From NCBI GenBank assembly GCA_965217045.1, contig OZ244228.1, positions 507,914-571,913 of the forward strand: a stretch of DNA of 64,000 nt, given 5' to 3'. The position numbers and the translations under genes are program-made. This document shows, piece by piece, positions 2,774 to 30,371 of this stretch. Numbering within the stretch: the stretch's first letter is position 1; the number at the start of each line of letters is the position of its first letter. The DNA is from Vicinamibacterales bacterium (GTDB lineage: Bacteria; Acidobacteriota; Vicinamibacteria; Vicinamibacterales; UBA8438). Below the pieces are notes generated by a model. The model had not been told where the DNA came from, did not search any database, and saw only the letters and a list, made by a program, of their open reading frames with translations.

Positions 2774-4070
2774 AGGCCACTGGCGGCAATTAACTTGCTA
2801 TCTTCTGGGTTTCGTAGTCTATTTCGGTTGCATGCAGCGCAACGTGGAATTGGAAGCCACCATCGTCGCGAAGTACGCGGTGGTCTCGCCCGTGTTGGAT
2901 GAGCGCAGTCGCCGCCGGTGGGCGGCCACCGAGTCTTTGTTCATCGGCTATGGCGGGGACGCGCTGGTCTCGTCGGCCACGGGTCTGGCCCGGGAGACGA
3001 TCCGGAAGGGTCGCCGGGAGATCTCGCAAGGCCAAACGCCGACAGACCGGGTACGACGTCCGGGCGCCGGGCGGCCCCGTCTCGAACAGAGCCAGCCCGG
3101 TCTGCTGGCCGCACTCGAAGCGCTGGTGGACCCGCTGACGCGCGGAGACCCGACCTCGCCGCTACGCTGGACAGGCAAGAGTCGGGCGAAGCTGGCCGCG
3201 GCGCTGACACAACAGGGGTGGCGAGTGAGTTCGACCACCGTCGGCCGGATGCTGCATCAACTGGGCTACCGGCTGCAATCGCCCCGCAAGCGCCAGGAGG
3301 GAGCGAGCCACCCGGACCGTAACGCGCAGTTCGAGCACATCAACGCGACCGCGGACGCGTTTCTGGCCGAGGGGCGGCCGGTGATCTCGGTCGACACGAA
3401 GAAGAAAGAGCTGGTCGGAAACTTCAAGAACGGCGGGCGGGAATGGCAGCCGAAGGGCACGCCGCCGGCGGTGTTGGTCCATGATTTCCCAACCGACGCC
3501 GAGGGCAAGGCGATTCCGTACGGCGTCTACGACATGGCGCGCAACGAAGCCTGGGTGAGCGTGGGATGGGACCACGACACACCGACGTTCGCGGTGGCGT
3601 CGATTCGCCACTGGTGGCGCCAGATGGGCTGCGGCGCCTACCCCGACGCCACCGCCCTGTTCGTCACGGCCGATGCGGGCGGGAGCAACGGGTATCGGTC
3701 TCGCGCCTGGAAGCATGAGCTTCAACAGTTGGCCGACGAGACCGGACTGACCATCCAGGTGAGTCATTTTCCACCCGGCACCAGCAAGTGGAACAAGATC
3801 GAACACCGGCTCTTCTGTCACATCACGGCGAACTGGCGCGGCACCCCGCTGACGACCTATGAGACTATCGTCGACCGCATCGGGAACACCCGGACGGCGA
3901 CCGGGCTCCGGGTCCTGGCCGAACTCGACGCCGGGCAGTATCCCACGGGCGTTACGGTGACCAAGGAACAGATGGACGCAATCGCGCTGGTCCGCGATAC
4001 GTTCCATGGGGAATGGAATTACAAACTGTTACCCCGATGAAGTTGATAACTTTATATCGATCACTGTCCT
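2774..4070 (+). mobile_element. ISAzo13-family IS inside intron A RT
   Basis: Encloses an intact transposase; imperfect IRs AGGCCACTG.. and ..CACTGTCCT; adjacent RT sequence deleted. Confidence 0.75.
2832..4040 (+). CDS. ISAzo13-family transposase (intact, 402 aa)
   Basis: ISVDTKKKELVGNFKN, PYGVYD, TADAGGSNG, TSKWNKIEHRLF and GEWNY motifs. Confidence 0.92.
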   Translation: MQRNVELEATIVAKYAVVSPVLDERSRRRWAATESLFIGYGGDALVSSATGLARETIRKGRREISQGQTPTDRVRRPGAGRPRLEQSQPGLLAALEALVDPLTRGDPTSPLRWTGKSRAKLAAALTQQGWRVSSTTVGRMLHQLGYRLQSPRKRQEGASHPDRNAQFEHINATADAFLAEGRPVISVDTKKKELVGNFKNGGREWQPKGTPPAVLVHDFPTDAEGKAIPYGVYDMARNEAWVSVGWDHDTPTFAVASIRHWWRQMGCGAYPDATALFVTADAGGSNGYRSRAWKHELQQLADETGLTIQVSHFPPGTSKWNKIEHRLFCHITANWRGTPLTTYETIVDRIGNTRTATGLRVLAELDAGQYPTGVTVTKEQMDAIALVRDTFHGEWNYKLLPR

Positions 4071-4413
4071 TACGGGTACCGGCCAAAACGCACGGCCCAT
4101 CGGGCGGTGCACCGGGTGACGACGGCGGTCGTAAAGAACAAGACCACGGTGATAGACGTGGACTTGGCGTCGTATTTCGATACGGTTCGACACGACATCC
4201 TGCTTGGAAAAGTGGCGATTCGGGTAGACGACGACGAAGTTTTACGGCTGTTGAAGCTCATCCTCAAGGCTGGAGGCAAGCGGGGCGTTCCCCAGGGTGG
4301 GGTTATTACTCCCCGAACGCAAAAGGCAACTTTCTGTTCGATCGGGTGATCACCGGCTGGCGAGACCGACCGGTACTTGATCTACGTCTCAAGAGGTAAT
4401 ATGTTTATGCCTC

Positions 4414-4746
4414 ATGGCGCGGGCCACCAAGGCCGACAAGGCGCGCTTGCTCAACGCCGCGTACCGCCTGCTCGGACAGCAGATGGAACGCGCCGAGGCG
4501 GCCCGGCAACTCGGTCGCGAGTGCGCGTTGTCGCGCCGGCAGGCCTACCGCTATCTTCAGGAAGCGGCCGGGCTGAGCGCTCCGCTGCCGGCGGTCGAGC
4601 CGACCGTCGCAGTCACCTTCAAGCTGCCGGTCAGCACCGTACGCGCAATCCGCGCATATGCCCGCCACAGCGGACTCTCCCTCGGACAAGTCGTCACCCA
4701 GGCGGTGACGGCGTTCCTGGACAACTTCCGTCAGCGACGTGGGTGA
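4414..4746 (+). CDS. Small putative DNA-binding protein (HTH-like N-terminus, ribbon-helix-helix-like C-terminus), LSR element orf1
   Basis: 110 aa; AEAARQL..LSRRQAYRYL and TFKLPVSTVRAIRAYA..SLGQVVTQAV patterns; overlaps the next ORF. Confidence 0.65.
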   Translation: MARATKADKARLLNAAYRLLGQQMERAEAARQLGRECALSRRQAYRYLQEAAGLSAPLPAVEPTVAVTFKLPVSTVRAIRAYARHSGLSLGQVVTQAVTAFLDNFRQRRG

Positions 4747-5041
4747 ACGACAACCACGAAGAGCTCCGCGGCAGGTGCAGCTCGATTGCACGTTCGATCG
4801 ACTTCGCGACAGCAAGATCGCCCAGGCGTACACGTTGTTGGTACCGGCCTGTATGCGTCCGGTTGCAGCCCACGGAATGGAGCGTCCACATGCAGATGGC
4901 GGCGATCTACACGCGCGTGTCCTCGAATCAGCAGCGCGAAGCGCACACGATCGCGAGCCAGACGGCGGCGCTGGTCGAATGGGCAGCGACGCTCGATCTG
5001 GAGGTGCCCCGGCAATGGGTCTTCGAAGACGAAGGCTATAG
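4739..5041 (+). CDS. Small hypothetical protein, LSR element orf2
   Basis: GTG start overlaps the orf1 stop; runs into the LSR start in another frame; true length uncertain. Confidence 0.4.
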   Translation: MGERQPRRAPRQVQLDCTFDRLRDSKIAQAYTLLVPACMRPVAAHGMERPHADGGDLHARVLESAARSAHDREPDGGAGRMGSDARSGGAPAMGLRRRRL

Positions 5042-6673
5042 CGGGGCGACGCTCGAACGGCCGGGATTGGAACAGGTGCGCGACCTGGCAGCCGCCGGCG
5101 ACATCCAGGTGGTGCTCGTGCACAGTCCGGACCGGCTGAGTCGGAAGTACGCCTACCAAGTCCTGTTGATCGAAGAGTTCGGACGTCACGGGGTCGAGAC
5201 CCGCTTCCTCAACGGCCCGTCGAACGCCACGGCCGAGGATCAGCTGCTGGTGTAGTTTCAGGGCATGATCGCCGAGTACGAACGCGCTCAGATCCTCGAA
5301 CGGTCGCGTCGTGGCAAGCGGCACCGCGCGCGAGCCGGCGAGATCAGTGTCCTGGGCGGCGCTCCCTATGGTTATCGCTACATTCGCAAGCGTGATGACC
5401 ACCCGGCGGCGTACGTCGTCATCGACGCCGAAGCGCGCGTTGTCCGCGACGTCTACGAGCACTACACCGTCACGGGCTGGAGCATCGCGGCGATCACCCG
5501 CTGGCTCAACGAGCAAGGTATGCCCACGCGGAAGGTCGGCACCCGTTGGGAACGCTCCACCGTATGGGCGATGCTGCGCAATCCGGCCTATCGCGGCACG
5601 GCGTGTTTCGGCAAGACGCGACGAGCCCAACGGCAGCGCGTGACGCGCCCACTACGGCTGCGTGGCGGCGCCGCCAGTCGCGACAGTGCGAACCACGAAC
5701 GGCCGCGCGAGGAATGGATCGAGATCCCGGTGCCGGCGATCGTGGACGAGTCGACCTTCGCGCGCGCACGAACTGCTGCACGAGAACAAGGTGCACGCCC
5801 GGCGGCGCACGATCGAACTGCACGAGAACGAGCCTCGTACAGGGGCTCGTGAGTTGCCAGAAATGTGGCTACGCGCTCTCGCGCGCGTCGGCCCGGTCGA
5901 GCGCCCGGAAGATTCACTACTACCGCTGCATCGGATCCGACGGATGGCGGCACCTCGGCGGCCCCCGGTGCGACACGCGCCCCGTGCGGCAGGACCTCTT
6001 GGACGAGGTCGTCTGGACCGAAGTGATACGGTTGCTTGAGGATCCGGCACTGATCCAACAGGAACTGGATCGCCGGCTGGCCGCCGCTCAGGCTGCTGAC
6101 CCTGCGAAGACCCGCACGCAGGCGGTGGAGCGGGACCTCACTCGAGTCGGGAAGAGCATGGAACGGCTGCTCACCGCCTACCAGGAGGATCTGCTGTCGC
6201 TCGAGCAGCTACGTGAGCGGATGCCGTTGCTGCGTCAACGTGAGCAGACGCTACGCTACGAGTTGAACGCTTTGGTCGAGCAGACTCGCGAGCGCGCCGC
6301 GCATCTGCGCTTGGCCGAGACCCTGTCGGCGTTTCTCACGCGCCTGCGCGCGACGGCCGAGACGCTCGACATCGTGGAGCGGCAGCGAATCGTGCGCCTC
6401 GTCGTCAAGGAGGTCCTCGTCAATGACGACAAGATCGTGATCCGCCACTGCATTCCCGTACCCTCGGGGCCACCGCCAACGAACGGTGGCGGACCGAACA
6501 ACGACGCCGACAACGCTGCGGACCCTCGAAGTTACCTTTTGCGTTCGGGGAGTAATTTCACCCTTGCTCAGCAATCTCTATCTCAACGAGGTGGACAAGA
6601 TGCTGGAGCGGGCGAAGGACGTCACCCGACAAGGACGCTACCACTACATCGAGTATGCTCGATTCGCCGATGA
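4890..6673 (+). pseudogene. Large serine recombinase (resolvase + recombinase + Zn-ribbon + coiled coil); in-frame TAG at 5253-5255 and indels at ~5770-5850
   Basis: AIYTRVSS catalytic motif, EDEGYSG, DRLSR, AEYERAQILERSRRGK, CQKCG..YYRC. The ORF reads through attR into host RT DNA. Confidence 0.9.
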
Positions 6674-6675
6674 CC

Positions 6676-7373
6676 GTGCGCCACGAAGGCGCAGAAGGGA
6701 GGCCGAGATGGCCGCCTAGCTGCAGCCATGCTGCACGAGGGATGAGGGTAGGCCCCTCGGAGCCGCCCGGCAGGGGGAGGCTCCAAACCGCCGTGCGCTG
6801 CTTCGGTCAAGAGCCGGGGTGGTAAGCGTCACGGAAACGGCGCGGCGCGACCGCGTCAGGTAGGGTGCAGGGAGACGAAGTGGATGAACCACCGGCAACG
6901 TGTCGAAAGCGTAGGGACGGTGTCGAAACCGGGGCGAGTCGTTAACCCGGGACGAGTCCAGTGGGAGCCTGCAGCTTGGCTGGGCGGCACCCGGCATAAA
7001 GGTGGCGTGACCCTGCACCAGGCCCTTGTGTGGAACGTGGGAACCTGTCGCCTCGATGTGAAGGGAGAAATCCAAGGGGCCGACCCCCAAGGATGAGAAG
7101 CCCGATGCGAGGCACAGGGGCGGAGCGACCCGTACGAGCGATGAAGTCGGGGAAACTCGATGGAGCAAAGGGGTCGCGTCATCCAGCGTGTCCCGACGGT
7201 CAACCGCGCGTGCGGGAGGAGCCGTCGAGCCACGCGAAGCCGTTCAGGCTGTTCGCCCATTGGCATCTGCTGGGGGTGACGCTGGCGGCTGGATGATGGG
7301 AGCTGTATGAGCGGAGACGTTCACGTACAGTTCTGCGAGCGCCCGGGGGTGAGATTCCCCCGGGCGACTCACC
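6676..7373 (+). mobile_element. Group II intron B, ORF-less deletion derivative, inserted 1 nt after the RT FADD codons
   Basis: GTGCG at 6676; domain V GAGCTGTATGAGCGGAGACGTTCACGTACAGTTC; ends ..GACTCACC. Removal restores TTC GCC GAT GAC C|TG (FADDL). Near-identical to 29753-29190 plus the 3' end of the full copy. Confidence 0.92.
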
Positions 7374-7840
7374 TGGTGATCCTGATCGACGGCTACCGCC
7401 GGTGGCGGTGGCTTGAGACGACCGTGTACAAGCGGCTTCTGGAGGAACTGGCCACACTCGACGTGGAACTCAATCGTGACAAGACGCGTCGCGTCGATCT
7501 CGCAAAGGGCGAGAGTTTCACCTTCCTTGGGTTCAGCATCCGCCGCGCCTGGACGCAGCGGGGCAAGTGGGGGGTTGCCTGTGTGCCGAAGATAGCGGCA
7601 CGCACCAAACTCCTGCGACGGCTCAAGGGGGTGATGCGACGACATTGCTCGCAACCGGTTGAAAGGGTCATTGCTCTCATCAACCCAATCCTGCGCGGAT
7701 GGACGAACTACTTCCGCATAGGACAATCGAGCCGATGTTTCAGTCACGTGAAGGACTGGGTCGAGAAGAAGGTACGGCGACACCTGATGCGACAGCGCGG
7801 GCGACTGGGGTTCGGCTGGAAGAGGTGGAGTAGGCAGAAG

Positions 7841-9624
7841 GTCTTCATTTAGCGGGTTCCGGGGCAGGTGTCAAAGTTTTGACTTGTACAAATTTCGGAA
7901 CTGTGGCATAACCTTGGCGTGAAGGTCGGGGACCGCAATTCGCACGAGAACCTGCAGGCCGAGGTCGAACGGCTCCGCACGGAGTTGACGCGGCGCGAGC
8001 GCGACACCAAGAACCAGCAACGCGAGAACGGTCGCCAGCAGCGTCAGATCGACGGCCTGCAAGGCCAGATCGAGCGTCAGAAGCGGGAGATCGAGCAACT
8101 GAGGGGGCAGTTGGCCGCCGCGCGCCGGGCGGGGTTCCGACAAGCCGCCCCCTTCGCCAAGGACCGACCGCAAGGACGCGGCCGGCGTCCCGGTCGACGG
8201 GCTGGTACGCAGTATGGTCGGAAGGCGTGCCGCCCGCGCCCGGCACGGGTTGACCAGACCCTGGAAGCGCCGGTGCCGACGGCGTGTCCCGACTGCGGCG
8301 GGTCGGTCGAAGTGACCCACGTGGCGTCGCAGTATCAGGAAGAAATCCCCGAAGTGCGCCCGGTCGTGCGCCGCTTCGACATCGAAGTGGGCCGCTGCTC
8401 ACAGTGTCGGCGGCGCGTGCAGGGCCGCCACGCGCTGCAGACCTCGGATGCGCTGGGAGCGGCCGGCGCGCAGCTCGGCCCCGGCGTCGTCGCGCTGGTC
8501 GTCGAGTTGCACACGGAGATGGGCGTACCGCTGGCGAAGGTCGCCCATGTGCTGCGGACCACGTTCGGCTTACACGTGACACCGGGCGGCCTCGCCCACC
8601 TGCTGCACCGCACGGCCCGCGACGCCGCGCCGACCTACACGGCGCTGTGCGAGCAGGTCCGCAACTCGCCCACGGTCACACCGGATGAAACCGGGTGGCG
8701 CGTCGGTGCCATCAGCCACTGGCTGTGGGCCTTCGTCACCCCGGAGACGACGGTCTACGCCATTTGCCCCGGCCGCGGGTTCGACGATGCCACCACGGTT
8801 CTGGGGGCCGACTTCGCCGGGGTGCTCGTGCGCGACGGGTGGGTGTCGTATCGTTGCTACCGCGAAGCGCTGCACCAATCCTGTCTGAATCACCTACTCC
8901 GACGATGCAAGGAACTGCAGGAAGATCATCCGCACAGTCTGTGGGCCGGGCAGGTGCAAGCGGTCTTGCAGACGGGCCTTGCCGTGCGTGACCGCTGCAA
9001 CGACGGCGAGCTGAGCGAGCACGGTCTGGCATCGATCCGCGGCCGACTCGTAGCCCGGCTCGGTCGGCTCATTGACGCACCGCCACCGCTGGACGACGCC
9101 GAGCGCTTTGCCCGGCATCTGGCCACCGAATTCGCTGCCGTGTTTCTCTTCTTGTGGGACCTGTCGATCGACGCCACCAACTGGCGCGCCGAACAGGCCA
9201 TCCGTCCCGCCGTCGTTATCCGAAAGGTCTGCGGTGGCAACCGCACCCGCCACGGCGCCGACAGCCAGCAGGTGCTGGCCAGCGTCGTGCGCACCGCCCG
9301 CCAACGCGACCTCGATCTACCTCCGCTGATCGCCACGATGTTGCGCGCCACCGGTCCCGTCGTCCCCGACGCCTTCGGGCTCCCCCCGCCGCCCGCCTGA
9401 GGGTGGGCGAGCATCGCTCCCTCGCGAGACGTGAAGATCGGCAACCCCGAGACGGTCGCTTCAACTGCGACCGACCCAGGCAGGTACCGTCACGCGCAGG
9501 GGTGAAGCACCAATAGAACCGATGCAGTTCACAGCTCCGTTGCCGTTCGGAACTTCAAGAGTCCCCAACCCATTTCTGCTATTTATGCCCGTATTTGTTG
9601 AGGAATCACCCGCTAAACGAATAC
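7841..9624 (+). mobile_element. IS66-family single-ORF element in the intron A RT C-terminus
   Basis: IRs GTCTTCATTTAGCGGGT / ACCCGCTAAACGAATAC; 8-bp target duplication GGCAGAAG at 7833-7840 and 9625-9632. Confidence 0.9.
7919..9400 (+). CDS. IS66-family transposase
   Basis: N-terminal coiled coil, CPDCGG/CSQC zinc finger, DETGW, VRDGW, TNWRAEQAIRPAV. Confidence 0.9.
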   Translation: MKVGDRNSHENLQAEVERLRTELTRRERDTKNQQRENGRQQRQIDGLQGQIERQKREIEQLRGQLAAARRAGFRQAAPFAKDRPQGRGRRPGRRAGTQYGRKACRPRPARVDQTLEAPVPTACPDCGGSVEVTHVASQYQEEIPEVRPVVRRFDIEVGRCSQCRRRVQGRHALQTSDALGAAGAQLGPGVVALVVELHTEMGVPLAKVAHVLRTTFGLHVTPGGLAHLLHRTARDAAPTYTALCEQVRNSPTVTPDETGWRVGAISHWLWAFVTPETTVYAICPGRGFDDATTVLGADFAGVLVRDGWVSYRCYREALHQSCLNHLLRRCKELQEDHPHSLWAGQVQAVLQTGLAVRDRCNDGELSEHGLASIRGRLVARLGRLIDAPPPLDDAERFARHLATEFAAVFLFLWDLSIDATNWRAEQAIRPAVVIRKVCGGNRTRHGADSQQVLASVVRTARQRDLDLPPLIATMLRATGPVVPDAFGLPPPPA

Positions 9625-25849: not shown

Positions 25850-26491
25850 GAGCCGCTTGCAAAACTCCCGGGGGATTGGGGTGGGCGCAGTCCTCAGCTC
25901 TCTTGGTGAACACGATTTGCCCTGGATCGTGGACTGGATATCTTGTCGGGAGAACCGGCGGCACGCCGGGAGGTAGAAGTCGGATGTTTCGACGTGTTCT
26001 CGACCGCGCGTTGGGACACCCGTGGGTGACTGACGCCCGTCGGGCGCCTCAGGGCGTTGCCGGCGGTGCACTGGTTATGTCACGAGGCGCACGAGCTGGT
26101 CGGCGGTGAGTGCGAGCACGCCGAACATGCAGTGGCACATTATTTTCGAGGCGCCACAGACCCGGACATGGCGACCGCCGAACTCGTCCTTGAGTCGGCC
26201 ATTGACGCGCTCACCCGCCGTACGCTCGTTGTAGCGAGCCTGCTCGGGAAGCTGAAAGCGATACGCTGCAGGCGCCGGGCTTCGGTTCGCAATTCCTCCG
26301 CCAACGCCTTGTCGCGGCGGGGGTTGGTGTCAATCAACGGGACGTGGCCGAGTGAGCGGCTGTGCTGGCGGATCGGTTCCGCGTCGTAGGCGGCGTCCAT
26401 CAGGTCATACAGATTGGTCGTTCGCTCGGCCGACAAGGTCGCCAGCGGAATGGCGGCTTGGCTGTCGTGCAGGGAGGCGGACGTCAGCAGG
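25850..26491 (-). mobile_element. 3' part of IS5/IS1182-like element, copy 2 (transposase C-terminus ~26074-26491)
   Basis: Near-identical to 10011-10041 + 12897-13507 in inverted orientation, without the IS21 insertion. Confidence 0.85.
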
Positions 26492-27172
26492 GTAGAGTCG
26501 ACGACTGGCGCGGTGGCGGTAGGCGTAGGGGGTAGCTGTTCCCGGCAGCTTTCGCTGATGCCGGTGCCTCACTCCTCGCCATGGCTCCGTTTCCAGTCGC
26601 CGCTCATCGAACCGGACGGGCGGATTTCCCGCATCCGGCTCTCGGGCGAGATCATGCCTTCGCCCACGGAAAGCTCGCCGTTCGCGGAACAAGGCGGGTG
26701 AGCCCGTACTCTTGCCAGAGTCGCTCATCCGGGAAGCGCACGTATTTCCCTAACTGCACCTTGTGCTTGCGACAGAGCCACTGGCGCAGCCGCCGCGTCG
26801 CGTGCCGGTCAATCGCAGCGTAGGCCGGGCTGACCTGCCCCAGGGTGAAGTAGTTCGCCCAACCGGTCAACAGCCGATTGATGCGCGCTACCACCACCGG
26901 CGGCGATAGGGGCCCGTTACGCCGCGTAGTCAGTTCGCTCACGCGACGGCAGATGCTCTGGACGTTCGACTGACTCGGCCGCGTGCCGATATAGGCGCGC
27001 CCCGTGTCCCGCCGGTAGTTGCGCCCAATCCGGTCGCCGAGGAACGTCATCGACTCCTCCGGCAACCGGCAGCAGCGGGTCTTCTCGGCGTTCATCGGCA
27101 GCTTCAGACGCTCCAGCAGGGTTTCGACCGCGGCCAGCATCACCGCTGCCGGCGCTCGGCCGAGCACCGCAA

Positions 27173-27884
27173 GGTGAGTCGCCCGGGGGAATCTCACCCC
27201 CGGGCGCTCGCAGAACTGTACGTGAACGTCTCCGCTCATACAGCTCCCATCATCCAGCCGAGCGTCAGCCCCAGCAGATGCCAGTGGGCGAACAGCCATC
27301 GACCACCGAGCCAGTGAATGGCGCGGCGGCGATGGCGCCGGAGCCTCTTGTATTTCCGCATGGCCCATCGAACCAACAGGCAGTGGCGAAAGACCGAATA
27401 CAGGGCCGACTTGTAGAAACGGCCGTAGAATTGAATCCAGCCACGAAGGCTTCCACATGCGGGCCAGGTCGTCGATGGCCTTGTCGCTGCGCCGAGGGAG
27501 GTGCCAACGTCGCATCTTCTGCCGCATCCGTGTCGCCGCCGCATTGCTCACCGCCGGTATGAAGCTGATGAAGTACTGACCCCATCGATTCTTTGCCCAG
27601 TATCCCAGGAAGGTGAACTGCTCCGTGGGATACTGCCCCGGCCGGTCGTCATCCTTGCAGTAGACGATACGCGTCTTCTCCGGATGTACTTCCAGCCGGA
27701 TTGCGCCGACGCCGTTTGATGTGCGCCAGGACCGCGTCTCCGTCCGACAGTGCGCGACGGCATCCGCATACCTCTCGAACGGAACGTCCGGGACCGCATC
27801 CAGTCGTCGAACGCGAGGTGCAGATATTGGCCAGGAGCGGGCTCGCGGCCCCCTTGGGGCGATCGTGCGCGGTACCAGGGTTCC
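27173..27884 (-). repeat. Degenerate tandem duplicate of the intron B 3' region (master 27885-28664)
   Basis: Same sequence with many small deletions. Confidence 0.85.
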
Positions 27885-27953
27885 GCCCGGGGGAATCTCA
27901 CCCCCGGGCGCTCGCAGAACTGCACGTGAACGTCTCCGCTCATACAGCTCCCA

Positions 27954-29204
27954 TCATCCAGCCGCCGGCGTCAGCCCCAGCAGATGCCAGTGGGCGAACA
28001 GCCGGGGCGCGCGACGCGCAAGACCACCGAGCCAGTGAATGGCGCGGCGGCGATGGCGCCGGAGCCTCTTGTATTTCCGCATGGCCCATCGAACCAACAG
28101 GTCGTTGAAGTGGCGAAAGACCGAATACAGGGCCGACTTGTAGAAACGGCCGTAGAATTGAATCCAGCCACGAAGGACAGGATTCCACATGCGGGCCAGG
28201 TCGTCGATGGCCTTGTCGCTGCGCCGAGGGAGGTGCCAACGTCGCATCTTCTGCCGCATCCGTGTCGCCGCCGCATTGCTCACCGCCGGTATGAAGCTGA
28301 TGAAGTACTGACCCCATCGATTCTTTGCCCGACGAGAGCGAAACGTGTATCCCAGGAAGGTGAACTGCTCCGTGGGATACTGCCCCGGCCGGTCGTCATC
28401 CTTGCAGTAGACGATACGCGTCTTCTCCGGATGTACTTCCAGCCGGCATTGCGCCAGACGACGTTTGATGTGCGCCAGGACCTGCTGCGCCTGCGTCTCC
28501 GTCCGACAGTGCGCGACGATATCATCCGCATACCTCTCGAACGGAACGTCCGGGTGCGTTGACCGCATCCAGTCGTCGAACGCGAGGTGCAAGAAGATAT
28601 TGGCCAGGAGCGGGCTCGCGACGCCCCCTTGGGGCGTTCCCATCGTGCGCGGTACCAGGGTTCCGTCTTCCTGCTGCATGGGAGCGGTCAGCCACCGCTG
28701 CACATAGAGCAGAATCCACCGGCACCGGGTGTACTTCCTGGCCGCACGCATGACGAGCGCGTGGTCCAGGTTGTCAAAGAAGCCGCGGATATCCAGATCG
28801 ATCACCCAGTCATAACGCCAGCATCGCTGCCGGGCCGTCGTGAGTGCGTCGATCGCGGACTTCCGCGGGCGATACCCATACGAATCGGGATGGAACTGTG
28901 GCTCCACGTCCGGTTCCAGGTACATCTTGACCACCGTCTGGGCAATTCTGTCGGCGACAGTGGGAATGCCCAAGCGTCGCTCGCTTCCGTCCTTCTTCGG
29001 TATCCCAACCGACCGGACCGGAGGCGGGAAGTACGTGCCCGACGACATCCGATTCCAAATCTTATAGAGATTGTTCTTCAGGTCCTGCTCGAACATCTCG
29101 ACAGACTCAGCATCGACGCCAGCTGCTCCGTGGTTCGCCTTGACCCGAGTGTAGGCCTCCCAAACCACCCACTTGGAAATACGAAACGGCTTCGCGTGGC
29201 TCGA
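27954..29204 (-). CDS. ltrA: Group II intron reverse transcriptase/maturase, intact, no endonuclease domain (class D / RmInt1-like)
   Basis: KPFRISK..GAAGVD, RRLGIPTVADR, YGYRP, DIRGFFD, GTPQGGVASPLLAN, RYADD, FTFLGY, LRGWIQFY. Start codon uncertain. Confidence 0.93.
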   Translation of the reverse strand, partial: SSHAKPFRISKWVVWEAYTRVKANHGAAGVDAESVEMFEQDLKNNLYKIWNRMSSGTYFPPPVRSVGIPKKDGSERRLGIPTVADRIAQTVVKMYLEPDVEPQFHPDSYGYRPRKSAIDALTTARQRCWRYDWVIDLDIRGFFDNLDHALVMRAARKYTRCRWILLYVQRWLTAPMQQEDGTLVPRTMGTPQGGVASPLLANIFLHLAFDDWMRSTHPDVPFERYADDIVAHCRTETQAQQVLAHIKRRLAQCRLEVHPEKTRIVYCKDDDRPGQYPTEQFTFLGYTFRSRRAKNRWGQYFISFIPAVSNAAATRMRQKMRRWHLPRRSDKAIDDLARMWNPVLRGWIQFYGRFYKSALYSVFRHFNDLLVRWAMRKYKRLRRHRRRAIHWLGGLARRAPRLFAHWHLLGLTPAAG

Positions 29205-29862
29205 CGGCTCCTCCCGCTCGCGCGGTTGACCGTCGGGACACGCTGGATGACGCGACCCCTTTGCTCCATCGAATTTCCTCGACTTCATCGCTCGTACGGG
29301 TCGCTCCGCCCCTGTGCCTCGCATCGGGCTTCTCATCCTTGGGGGTCGGCCCCTTGGACTTCTCCCTTCGCATCGAGGCGACAGGTTCCCACGTTCCGCA
29401 CAAGGGCCTGGTGCAGGGTCACGCCACCTTTATGCCGGGTGCCGCCCAGCCAAGCTGCAGGCTCCCGCTGGACTTGTCCCGGGTTAACGACTCGCCCCGG
29501 TTTCGACACCGTCCCTACGCTTTCGACACGTTGCCGGTGGTTCATTCACTTCGTCTCCCTGCACCCTACCTGGCGCGGTCGCGCCGCGCCGTTTCCGTGA
29601 CGCTTACCACCTCGGCTCTTGACCGAGGCAGCGCACGGCGGTTTGGAGCCTCCCCCTGCCGGGCGGCTCCGAGGGGCCTGCCCTCATCCCTCATGCAGCA
29701 TGGCTGCAGCTAGGTGGCCATCTCGGCCTCCTTTCCGCGCCTTCGTGGCGCACAGTCGTCTGCGTAGTTGACGATTTCCGCCTCGAAGCGCCGGGCGTAG
29801 CCCATTACCTTCCAGCCCAGAATGAAGCGACGCATGTAGACGTTGCTGAACAGCGGTGAACT

Positions 29863-30280
29863 TACTCCCCGAACGCAAAAGATAACTTCGAGGGTCCGCG
29901 GCGTTGTCGGCGTCGTTGTTCGGTCCGCCACCGTTCGTTGGCGGTGGCCCCGAGGGTACGGGAATGCAGTGGCGGATCACGATCTTGTCGTCATTGACGA
30001 GGACCTCCTTGACGATGAGGCGCACGATTCGCTGCCGCTCCACGATGTCGAGCGTCTCGGCCGTCGCGCGCAGGCGCGTGAGAAACGCCGACAGGGTCTC
30101 GGCCAAGCGCAGATGCGCGGCGCGCTCGCGAGTCTGCTCGACCAAAGCGTTCAACTCGTAGCGTAGCGTCTGCTCACGTTGACGCAGCAACGGCATCCGC
30201 TCACGTAGCTGCTCGAGCGACAGCAGATCCTCCTGGTAGGCGGTGAGCAGCCGTTCCATGCTCTTCCCGACTCGAGTGAG
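29863..30280 (-). mobile_element. Right end of a second copy of the LSR element (attR plus recombinase 3' end)
   Basis: Near-identical to ~6137-6554; arm at 29863-29888 joined via an AG core to TTCACCG (S-P) of intron C RT. Confidence 0.9.
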
Positions 30281-30371
30281 AACGGCGGAGCAAAAATAGA
30301 CCACAGCGCGGCGGTGTGTGACGTGGTCCCGGTGGTTTGGACAACTCGAGGGCTTGGTTAAGGTGTATTCC
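30277..30371 (+). mobile_element. Stacked IS-end fragments (IS21-like end 30277-30318, IS3-like left end 30319-30371)
   Basis: AACGGCGGAGCAAAAATAGACCAC resembles IS21 ends; TGACGTGGTCCCGGTGGTTTGGACAAC..TAAGGTGTATTCC resembles the IS3 end at 32114. Confidence 0.5.

Follow-up and report, generated by a model that had tools for sequence, protein, structure and literature searches.

The locus described here raises the question of how one intron came to interrupt, at the same base of the same active-site codons, the reverse transcriptase (RT) genes of two different group II introns. The window, meaning the whole analysed stretch of 64,000 nucleotides (nt), comes from a Vicinamibacterales bacterium of the phylum Acidobacteriota (GenBank assembly GCA_965217045.1, contig OZ244228.1, positions 507,914 to 571,913) and holds two copies of the inner intron, termed intron B, one on each strand. 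Nested in the group II introns termed host A and host C, intron B forms twintrons with them. Very probably, intron B is a mobile, endonuclease-less IIB-type group II intron of the described lineage that retrohomes into the codons of the RT active site, (R/N)(Y/F)ADD, and includes B.th.I3, M.a.I5, UA.I3 and P.l.I2. It is an exceptionally prolific member in a new phylum, and the phenomenon itself is already described.

Boundaries and reading frames of intron B

Copy 1 starts with GTGCG at 6676, directly after the 5' exon ...CGA TTC GCC GAT GAC C with its last base at 6675, and copy 2, on the minus strand, starts with the same GTGCG at 29753 after ...AAC TAC GCA GAC GAC T, which ends at 29754. 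The original prediction, made from the sequence of the window, had placed the intron one base after (Y/F)ADD at 6675/6676 and 29754/29753 with both frames restored on its removal, and the exon joins bear this out. The joined exons of copy 1 read ...YARFADD/LVILIDGYRR... and those of copy 2 ...IVNYADD/FAVLGRAP... (a slash marks the insertion point here and below), and neither frame is interrupted in RT motifs 6-7 or in the maturase domain. As the insertion lies one base past the second Asp codon and in the sense orientation, splicing restores the host RT frame.

The 3' end of copy 1, ...GACTCACC (= ...GGGCGACTCACC), lies at 7373 and not at 7380 as had been claimed, judging from frame restoration and from the Rfam model RF00029 (domains V and VI), whose match at 7298-7373 (55.7 bits) ends precisely at this junction. 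Copy 2 spans 29753-27173 (minus strand) and closes with the same 3' sequence, RF00029 again ending exactly at the junction, 27173. An alternative end at ...CAC (7372) was dismissed, since only ...CACC at 7373 and 27173 restores both frames, in agreement with the Rfam ends. Apart from the 5' GTGCG, the group II hallmarks of a domain V with the catalytic triad and a domain VI with a bulged A are present, and RF01999 (domains I-IV) matches both copies with 107 and 103 bits, in copy 1 at 6744-6861.

The two copies represent two forms of the intron. Copy 1, which lacks an open reading frame (ORF), equals nt 1-569 of the long form, 2 nt and nt 1751-1877, the retained parts being 97.4% identical in a BLAST comparison; the absence of the ORF from this 698-nt form is therefore a clean internal deletion of nt 570-1750, with the ribozyme and both exon-binding sites (EBSs) kept. 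Copy 2 consists of an ORF-bearing copy followed by a decayed partial copy, the 3' end of which is intact and joined to the host C 3' exon; the partial copy is either an old array member gone to decay or a local assembly problem. In the protein encoded by the long form, a profile search located TIGR04416 at residues 57-421 of 460 (E 4e-126), with only 39 C-terminal residues beyond the model and no match to any other domain family. No DNA-binding/endonuclease domain was thus found in the protein, and the span of the RT/maturase model leaves no room for an endonuclease domain.

Both hosts are group II introns in their own right. The spliced proteins of host A and host C match RVT_1 and GIIM, and each host retains ribozyme parts of its own, represented by RF02003 at 2182-2318 in host A and by RF00029 (domains V and VI) at 26643-26492 in host C. 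The two host RTs, initially called unrelated, are both group II intron RT/maturases, belonging to divergent lineages with 33% identity over 103 amino acids (aa).

Guide loops and target pairing

Domain I of intron B presents two loops that match the interrupted codons. Folding of domain I placed AGUCGUU (EBS1) and GCGUAG (EBS2), as predicted, in the terminal loops of two adjacent hairpins with covarying stems, the EBS2 hairpin directly preceding that of EBS1 (Table 1). In the EBS1 stem four positions are paired in all 42 distinct relatives, with exchanges of GC and AU (28:14) and of GC and CG (30:11); the outer stem of the EBS2 hairpin covaries in the 42 relatives as well, and the EBS1 and EBS2 loops are nearly invariant. 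Covariation here refers to pair counts for helices read from the alignment of the 42 relatives, the RNAalifold consensus of the EBS region being poor.

The sense-strand DNA C-TAC-GC n GAC-GAC-T is complementary to the domain I loops GCGUAG and AGUCGUU, in a layout with intron-binding site (IBS) 2 at -14 to -9, an unpaired base at -8 and IBS1 at -7 to -1. Counting its G-U pair at -7, EBS1 comprises 7 nt. The host C target (CTACGCaGACGACT/T) shows full complementarity to EBS2 and EBS1, and the host A target pairs less well, with an IBS1 mismatch at -1, a wobble at -5 and pairing of IBS2 at four of six positions. The complementarities that had first drawn attention to the locus were confirmed, namely that of AGTCGT (6937-6942 and 29492-29487) to ACGACT in the host C exon, which is perfect, and that of GCGTAG (6909-6914 and 29520-29515) to CTACGC; the coordinates and sequences of the 5/6 match between AGTCGT and ATGACC in the host A exon check out too.

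Copy number and site occupancy in the genome

The genome (G000), a metagenome-assembled genome (MAG) of 6.45 Mb with 69% G+C in 12 contigs, contains, according to BLAST, 55 intron B 5' ends and as many 3' ends, corresponding to about 55 copies and roughly 0.8-1% of its length. The clean copies comprise 23 of the 698-nt form, 19 of which are identical, and 19 of the long form, 15 of which have an intact 491-codon frame. Occupancy, counted through exact-pattern matches to occupied and empty sites, amounts to 10/10 for host C (NYADD-T), 20/21 for host A (RFADD-C), 3/4 for host E (SYADD-T), 4/4 for the paralogous RT family D/F/K (RY(C/A/S)DD-T), 1/1 for the RT-like gene J (RYVDD-T) and 0/1 for a further RYADD-A site. 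Altogether, of the 41 non-self RT active sites 38 are interrupted, with at least five RT lineages affected. The RT of intron B itself (RYADD-A, target GTATGCgGATGATA/T) is occupied at 2/25 sites.

Sites of the xADD type account for 40 of the 44 occupied loci, the exceptions being two insertion sequence (IS) copies, one 5'-truncated copy and one locus outside the site classes. The host RTs match RVT_1 and GIIM and are 31-45% identical around the active site, and across at least 11 site types of this genome the sequences flanking intron B vary outside the region from -14 to +1. Such RTs carry 19 identical 698-nt copies and a 97%-identical long form at one and the same codon position, which is far beyond chance. 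The single empty host A copy (C2:804784-804832) carries a G-to-A change inside IBS1, giving GATAAC(C) and RFADN, and looks like a naturally resistant site. Three paralogous host RTs with intron B (C1:344, C11:246151, C1:792278, C2:3186371) read RYCDD, RYADD and RYSDD; the active-site Ala codon is mutated in two of the three, which are still occupied, and the IBS region tolerates these changes.

Intron B has also entered genes that do not encode RTs, and these genes carry ...GCGGACGAC... A PP-loop ATPase gene (TtcA/TilS-like, SGGKDS) is interrupted at ...ALGHHADD/FVETLLLN (site CACCACGCGGACGACT/T) by a 698-nt copy in sense orientation (C12:661747-661050, minus strand); it is a probable housekeeping gene that would have to depend on splicing. 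Another copy lies at QFADD in a protein without a Pfam family, and an IS transposase site with the weak match GCGACC/T, present in 57 copies in the genome, is occupied twice by the long form. Such off-target hits show that nucleotides are read, rather than the identity of the gene as an RT. An unoccupied copy of the weak IS transposase target, ...CCGCTGGCGACC/TTGTCGG, is found in the window at 26437/26436 on the minus strand.

Head-to-tail arrays of up to four copies, in which short and long forms are mixed, were found with junctions ...CTCACC/GTGCG, and similar arrays occur in the relatives L052, L109, L121 and L126, from Bryobacterales, Chloroflexia and a Sinorhizobium meliloti plasmid. The arrays are consistent with re-homing at the junction of the 5' exon and the resident intron, and tandem re-integration at this junction has been shown experimentally for an IIB1 intron (PMC12584367).

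Lineage membership and relatives across phyla

B.th.I3 was retrieved from the Bacillus thuringiensis HD-789 plasmid NC_018509.1 (L245, 2517-4382) as an intron of 1866 nt located at AGGTATGCTGATGACT/GTGCG, as published. It is collinear with intron B, 1068 of 1860 aligned nt being identical (57.4%) in an alignment of 1883 positions for 1866 and 1877 nt, and the two RTs share 52.7% identity over 421 aa. EBS1 and EBS2 are identical in the two introns and lie in the same hairpins, the stems of which show compensatory changes. The match to the published site, the collinear alignment and the identical EBSs together identify intron B as a new member of the B.th.I3 lineage. The protein C-terminus ...RLFAHWHLLG... 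has its counterpart in B.th.I3 (...KLFAHWKYG...) and may represent the C-terminal motif specific to class D.

Within the same genus, the sister genomes G010 and G004 hold 97%-identical copies at NYADD, at VRYADD, in the RT of the intron itself and in arrays, and one of their sites encodes LAGD instead of ADD. A protein-seeded search of 185,579 species genomes resulted in 79 loci with RT identities of 59-95%, spanning Acidobacteriota, Chloroflexota, Bacillota, Myxococcota/Desulfobacterota, Pseudomonadota, Nitrospirota, Bacteroidota and archaea. The 53 introns with a mapped 5' end have GCGUAG as EBS2 and (A/G/U)GUCGUU as EBS1 in nearly every case. Insertion mainly outside RT genes was not seen among these homologs: ADD codons make up 42 of the 44 distinct insertion sites, RT genes can be recognised in at least 34 of 42 flanks, and most of the flanks run on into RT motifs 6 and 7. 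The flanks outside -14 to -1 are unrelated among the 44 sites.

One relative departs from this pattern in an instructive way. L101, from an uncultured Desulfobacterales MAG (CAZLRL010000132.1, 1511-3375) and with 65% RT identity, has CAUUAG as EBS2 and UAGCUUG as EBS1, and its target ...TAATG g CAAGTTA/ is complementary to the altered loops, AT-rich, and neither part of an RT gene nor YADD-coding. It is a natural case of retargeting away from YADD through EBS change. EBS1 also covaries with the exon bases at -1/-2 in L070, L072 and L090. The pattern of DD codons, N and GTGCRCCACGA occurs in at least 119 contigs from many bacterial phyla, candidate phyla radiation (CPR) bacteria and archaea including Thermoplasmata, suggesting that the lineage is far commoner than its four published members imply.

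Proposed mechanism and alternative explanations

The excised lariat, bound to the RT/maturase, would reverse-splice into YADD-coding DNA. Since the protein carries no endonuclease domain, replication forks would then probably prime cDNA synthesis, a route shown for RmInt1. YADD is near-universal in RTs and, in a genome of 69% G+C, is mostly written TAC GCN GAC/GAT GAC/GAT, which makes every other retroelement a potential target. The 698-nt form is presumably mobilised in trans by the protein of the long form and, with its 19 identical copies, appears to be the most recent burst. As almost all of the target recognition involves the 5' exon, a site would remain a target after insertion, which would explain the arrays. 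The guide-RNA-like specialisation on RT active-site codons put forward in the original prediction, which would allow different intron classes to be colonised, is supported by the EBS loops, the survey of relatives, L101 and the non-RT hits; it is not new, specialisation on YADD codons being already published for B.th.I3, M.a.I5, UA.I3 and P.l.I2 (PMC2504315).

Several points weigh against retrohoming as a member of this lineage. When the covariation of the +1 exon base with every domain I column was inspected for an EBS3, no column tracked +1; T stands at this position in 35 of 44 relatives, the others having G, C or A. Pairing strength alone does not fit occupancy either: host A sites, with a mismatch at -1 and IBS2 paired at 4/6, are 95% filled, and the own site, with chiefly a wobble at -2, is 8% filled. 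Other determinants, or co-propagation with host A, must therefore contribute, possible ones being twintron co-propagation, protein contacts outside the paired region and selection against self-interrupted copies. The 57% nucleotide identity to B.th.I3 is slightly below the published range of 58-67%, and the direct comparison with the named members covers B.th.I3 alone of the four. Splicing and mobility of intron B are themselves deduced from the identical copies and from the intact frames in 15 of 19 long copies.

A more far-reaching view, offered tentatively and with more doubt than confidence, regards intron B as a near-saturating hyperparasite (38/41 non-self vs 2/25 own RTs) with evolved self-avoidance, a real effect on competing introns and re-homing arrays in several phyla. 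If it were true, the activity of competing introns would be affected, since host RTs are made only once the inner intron has been spliced out. All 44 relatives have a purine after DD in their own RTs and 41 of 44 have GAT for the second Asp; the GAT-GAT plus purine of the own RT fits self-avoidance, and common descent is another possible explanation. Self-avoidance was not retained as a firm result, because the own-site pattern is universal among relatives that share ancestry and because -1 mismatches are found at 22 of 44 real targets.

Passive hitch-hiking, in which each host RT was entered by intron B on one or a few occasions and the high copy number results from the composite twintron spread of hosts A and C, is an unlikely account of the whole pattern. 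Host A and host C sites are multicopy and near-identical over the flanks examined, their occupancy of 95-100% is much above what pairing strength relative to the self site would lead one to expect, and twintron co-mobility has been considered possible in Thermosynechococcus elongatus (PMC2882425). Against this, the 698-nt and 1877-nt forms are both found in host A as well as in host C sites, and arrays mix the forms. Identical 698-nt copies moreover lie in at least seven sites, comprising the RT lineages A, C, D/F/K and J, the own RT (5'-end match only), the PP-loop gene and the own long form, and the only empty host A site is the one with an IBS1 mutation, as expected if homing filled all competent sites. 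Hitch-hiking at most contributes and is no alternative to YADD homing.

Far less probable still is recognition of the YADD-coding DNA by the intron protein instead of the RNA, with an incidental EBS complementarity. RmInt1 offers a precedent in the distal exon positions T-15 and G+4, which are contacted by its protein (PMC4075523), and base pairing leaves part of the occupancy unexplained; such a view is contradicted by L101, where EBS1, EBS2 and target changed in concert, by the covariation of the -1/-2 exon bases with EBS1 in L070, L072 and L090, and by flanks that are unrelated among targets beyond -14 to -1, the published members likewise sharing only IBS1/IBS2 (PMC2504315). Mis-joined repeats in a long-read metagenome, which could give apparent insertions and arrays in a MAG of 12 contigs where one partial copy has 76 gap positions (possibly read errors or a collapsed repeat), are scarcely credible as an explanation in view of the base-exact junctions with restored reading frames at 44 loci and of the recurrence of these junction types in other species and phyla that were assembled independently, and in completed plasmids of B. 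thuringiensis and S. meliloti.

Retrohoming into RT active-site codons by a member of the B.th.I3 lineage is therefore the explanation retained. The many independent insertions and the cross-phylum survey confirm an intron lineage that uses two guide loops on the codons of the most conserved RT motif and lives as a parasite of other retroelements. The genome provides an unusually rich natural experiment, with 44 occupied loci, autonomous and ORF-less forms, and saturated and spared sites one or two pairs apart, to which the resistant site, the non-RT off-targets and the tandem arrays add further value. It could serve to work out the rules by which endonuclease-less IIB introns choose their targets, and to study how retroelements compete.

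Feature coordinates and other insertions in the host introns

Table 1. Positions of intron B, its guide loops, its targets and its host genes in the window, and of its arrays elsewhere in the genome
Feature	Position	Strand	Description
Host intron A RT gene, 5' exon of intron B	6548-6675	+	RT motif 4 (ISPLLSN) to FADD; BLAST against an uninterrupted host A copy
Target in host intron A RT	6662-6675	+	IBS2 ATTCGC 6662-6667, unpaired C 6668, IBS1 GATGACC 6669-6675; codons (R)FADD + 1 nt
Intron B copy 1	6676-7373	+	698-nt ORF-less (delta-ORF) form: 5' GTGCG, domains I-III, domain IV stub, domains V and VI; RF01999 and RF00029
EBS2 GCGUAG, copy 1	6909-6914	+	11-nt terminal loop (intron nt 230-240) of domain I hairpin; minimum free energy fold
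EBS1 AGUCGUU, copy 1	6937-6943	+	12-nt terminal loop of hairpin CCGGG/CCCGG (intron nt 254-275); minimum free energy fold
Domain V of copy 1	7300-7333	+	AGC triad, GAGA loop; helices read off the sequence
Domain VI of copy 1	up to 7373	+	bulged A at 7367 as branch point, 7th nt from the 3' end; read off the sequence
Host intron A RT gene, 3' exon of intron B	7374-7840	+	LVILIDG... through RT motifs 6-7 and maturase domain X; IS66-family element cuts at 7841
Host intron C RT gene, 3' exon of intron B	26650-27172	-	FAVLG... to stop codon, then host C domains V/VI, RF00029 26643-26492
Decayed partial second copy of intron B	27173-27885	-	long-form nt 1089-1877, 89% identical, 76 gap positions; RF00029 27248-27173
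Intron B long form in copy 2	27884-29753	-	nt 1-1870 of 1877; 99.8% identity with the long copy commonest in the genome; RF01999 29685-29568, RF00029 27952-27889
Intron-encoded RT/maturase	27954-29336	-	460-codon open frame from first ATG; TIGR04416, 53% identical to B.th.I3 RT
Own RT active site of intron B	28505-28545 region	-	AGG TAT GCG GAT GAT A
EBS2 / EBS1, copy 2	29520-29515 / 29492-29486	-	from the sequence
Target in host intron C RT	29754-29767	-	IBS2 CTACGC 29767-29762, unpaired A 29761, IBS1 GACGACT 29760-29754; codons (N)YADD + 1 nt
Arrays of intron B	C2:380724-385891; C2:257067-251918 (-); C9:120275-117006 (-); C1:185501-188075		

The host introns of the window have received further insertions. 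An element of ~2.24 kb with a large serine recombinase lies at 4308-6547 (plus strand) and at about 29866-30290 (minus strand), interrupting the same RT motif 4 codon (before TTCACC of ...ISPL...) in the host A and host C RTs; it is situated ~105-120 nt upstream of intron B and is absent from most other host A and host C copies. Two IS elements interrupt host A as well, namely an ISAzo13-family element (transposase 2832-4037; segments 2118-2775 and 2776-4068), beside which ~295 nt of host A are missing, and an IS66-family element at 7841-9624 (transposase 7919-9397), the flanks of which overlap by 8 nt at 7840/9625.

Comparison with known systems

The lineage to which intron B is assigned was described by Tourasse & Kolstø 2008 (PMC2504315), who reported B.th.I3 in an RT gene at AGGTATGCTGATGACT with the RYADD codons as IBS1/IBS2. 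According to this work, B.th.I3, M.a.I5, UA.I3 and P.l.I2 share 58-67% identity over 1.8 kb, a B-like RNA, a protein without endonuclease domain and target sites that have only IBS1/IBS2 in common; for the specificity it cites Dai & Zimmerly 2003. Reviews (PMC4424553, PMC2882425) give a like account of the Methanosarcina nests.

Like B.th.I3 (B. thuringiensis israelensis), M.a.I5 (Methanosarcina acetivorans), UA.I3 (uncultured archaeon GZfos32G12) and P.l.I2 (Photorhabdus luminescens), intron B is inserted after RYADD plus 1 nt, measures ~1.8-1.9 kb, lacks an endonuclease domain, has a B-like (IIB) RNA and forms twintrons in the RT ORFs of other introns; members also enter RTs that are not intron-encoded. 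It differs from the named members in its host from the Acidobacteriota (Vicinamibacterales), in its ~55 copies with 38 of 41 non-self RT sites filled, in the high-copy 698-nt ORF-less form, in the arrays of up to four copies and in the hits at ADD codons of non-RT genes. For Methanosarcina, some of these distinguishing traits may already have been published.

RmInt1 of Sinorhizobium meliloti (class D / IIB3) likewise lacks an endonuclease domain and resides in mobile DNA, and its experimentally mapped layout of IBS2, an unpaired -8, a 7-bp IBS1 and a single-base IBS3 (PMC4075523) has the same succession of IBS2, -8 gap and IBS1 as intron B; fork-primed retrohoming is presumed to be alike in the two. 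RmInt1 differs in its other EBS sequences and in targeting the IS element ISRm2011-2 instead of RT genes. Exon recognition by intron B, with EBS loops in domain I and an RmInt1-like arrangement, is of the IIB type and in its layout resembles class D. Relatives on S. meliloti plasmids (59% RT identity) are not RmInt1 and were rejected as evidence for class D, the examined locus being an arrayed intron inside an RT/maturase gene.

The TeI3/TeI4 introns of T. elongatus (Mohr et al. 2010, PMC2882425) resemble intron B in their genome-wide spread, in recognition mostly by base pairing, in the occurrence of identical inner introns within diverged outer introns and in their ORF-less derivatives, which are mobilised in trans by the protein of a relative. 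Their twintron site is a different one, between the first two ATGs of the ORF, and they belong to class CL2/IIB2. The IIB1 intron EcKTE56.groEL (Gomes et al. 2025, PMC12584367) shares with intron B a specialised conserved target and head-to-tail tandems; its target is in contrast the groEL stop codon, and its tandems are explained by an EBS3(U)-IBS3(G) wobble, whereas no EBS3 is assigned in intron B.

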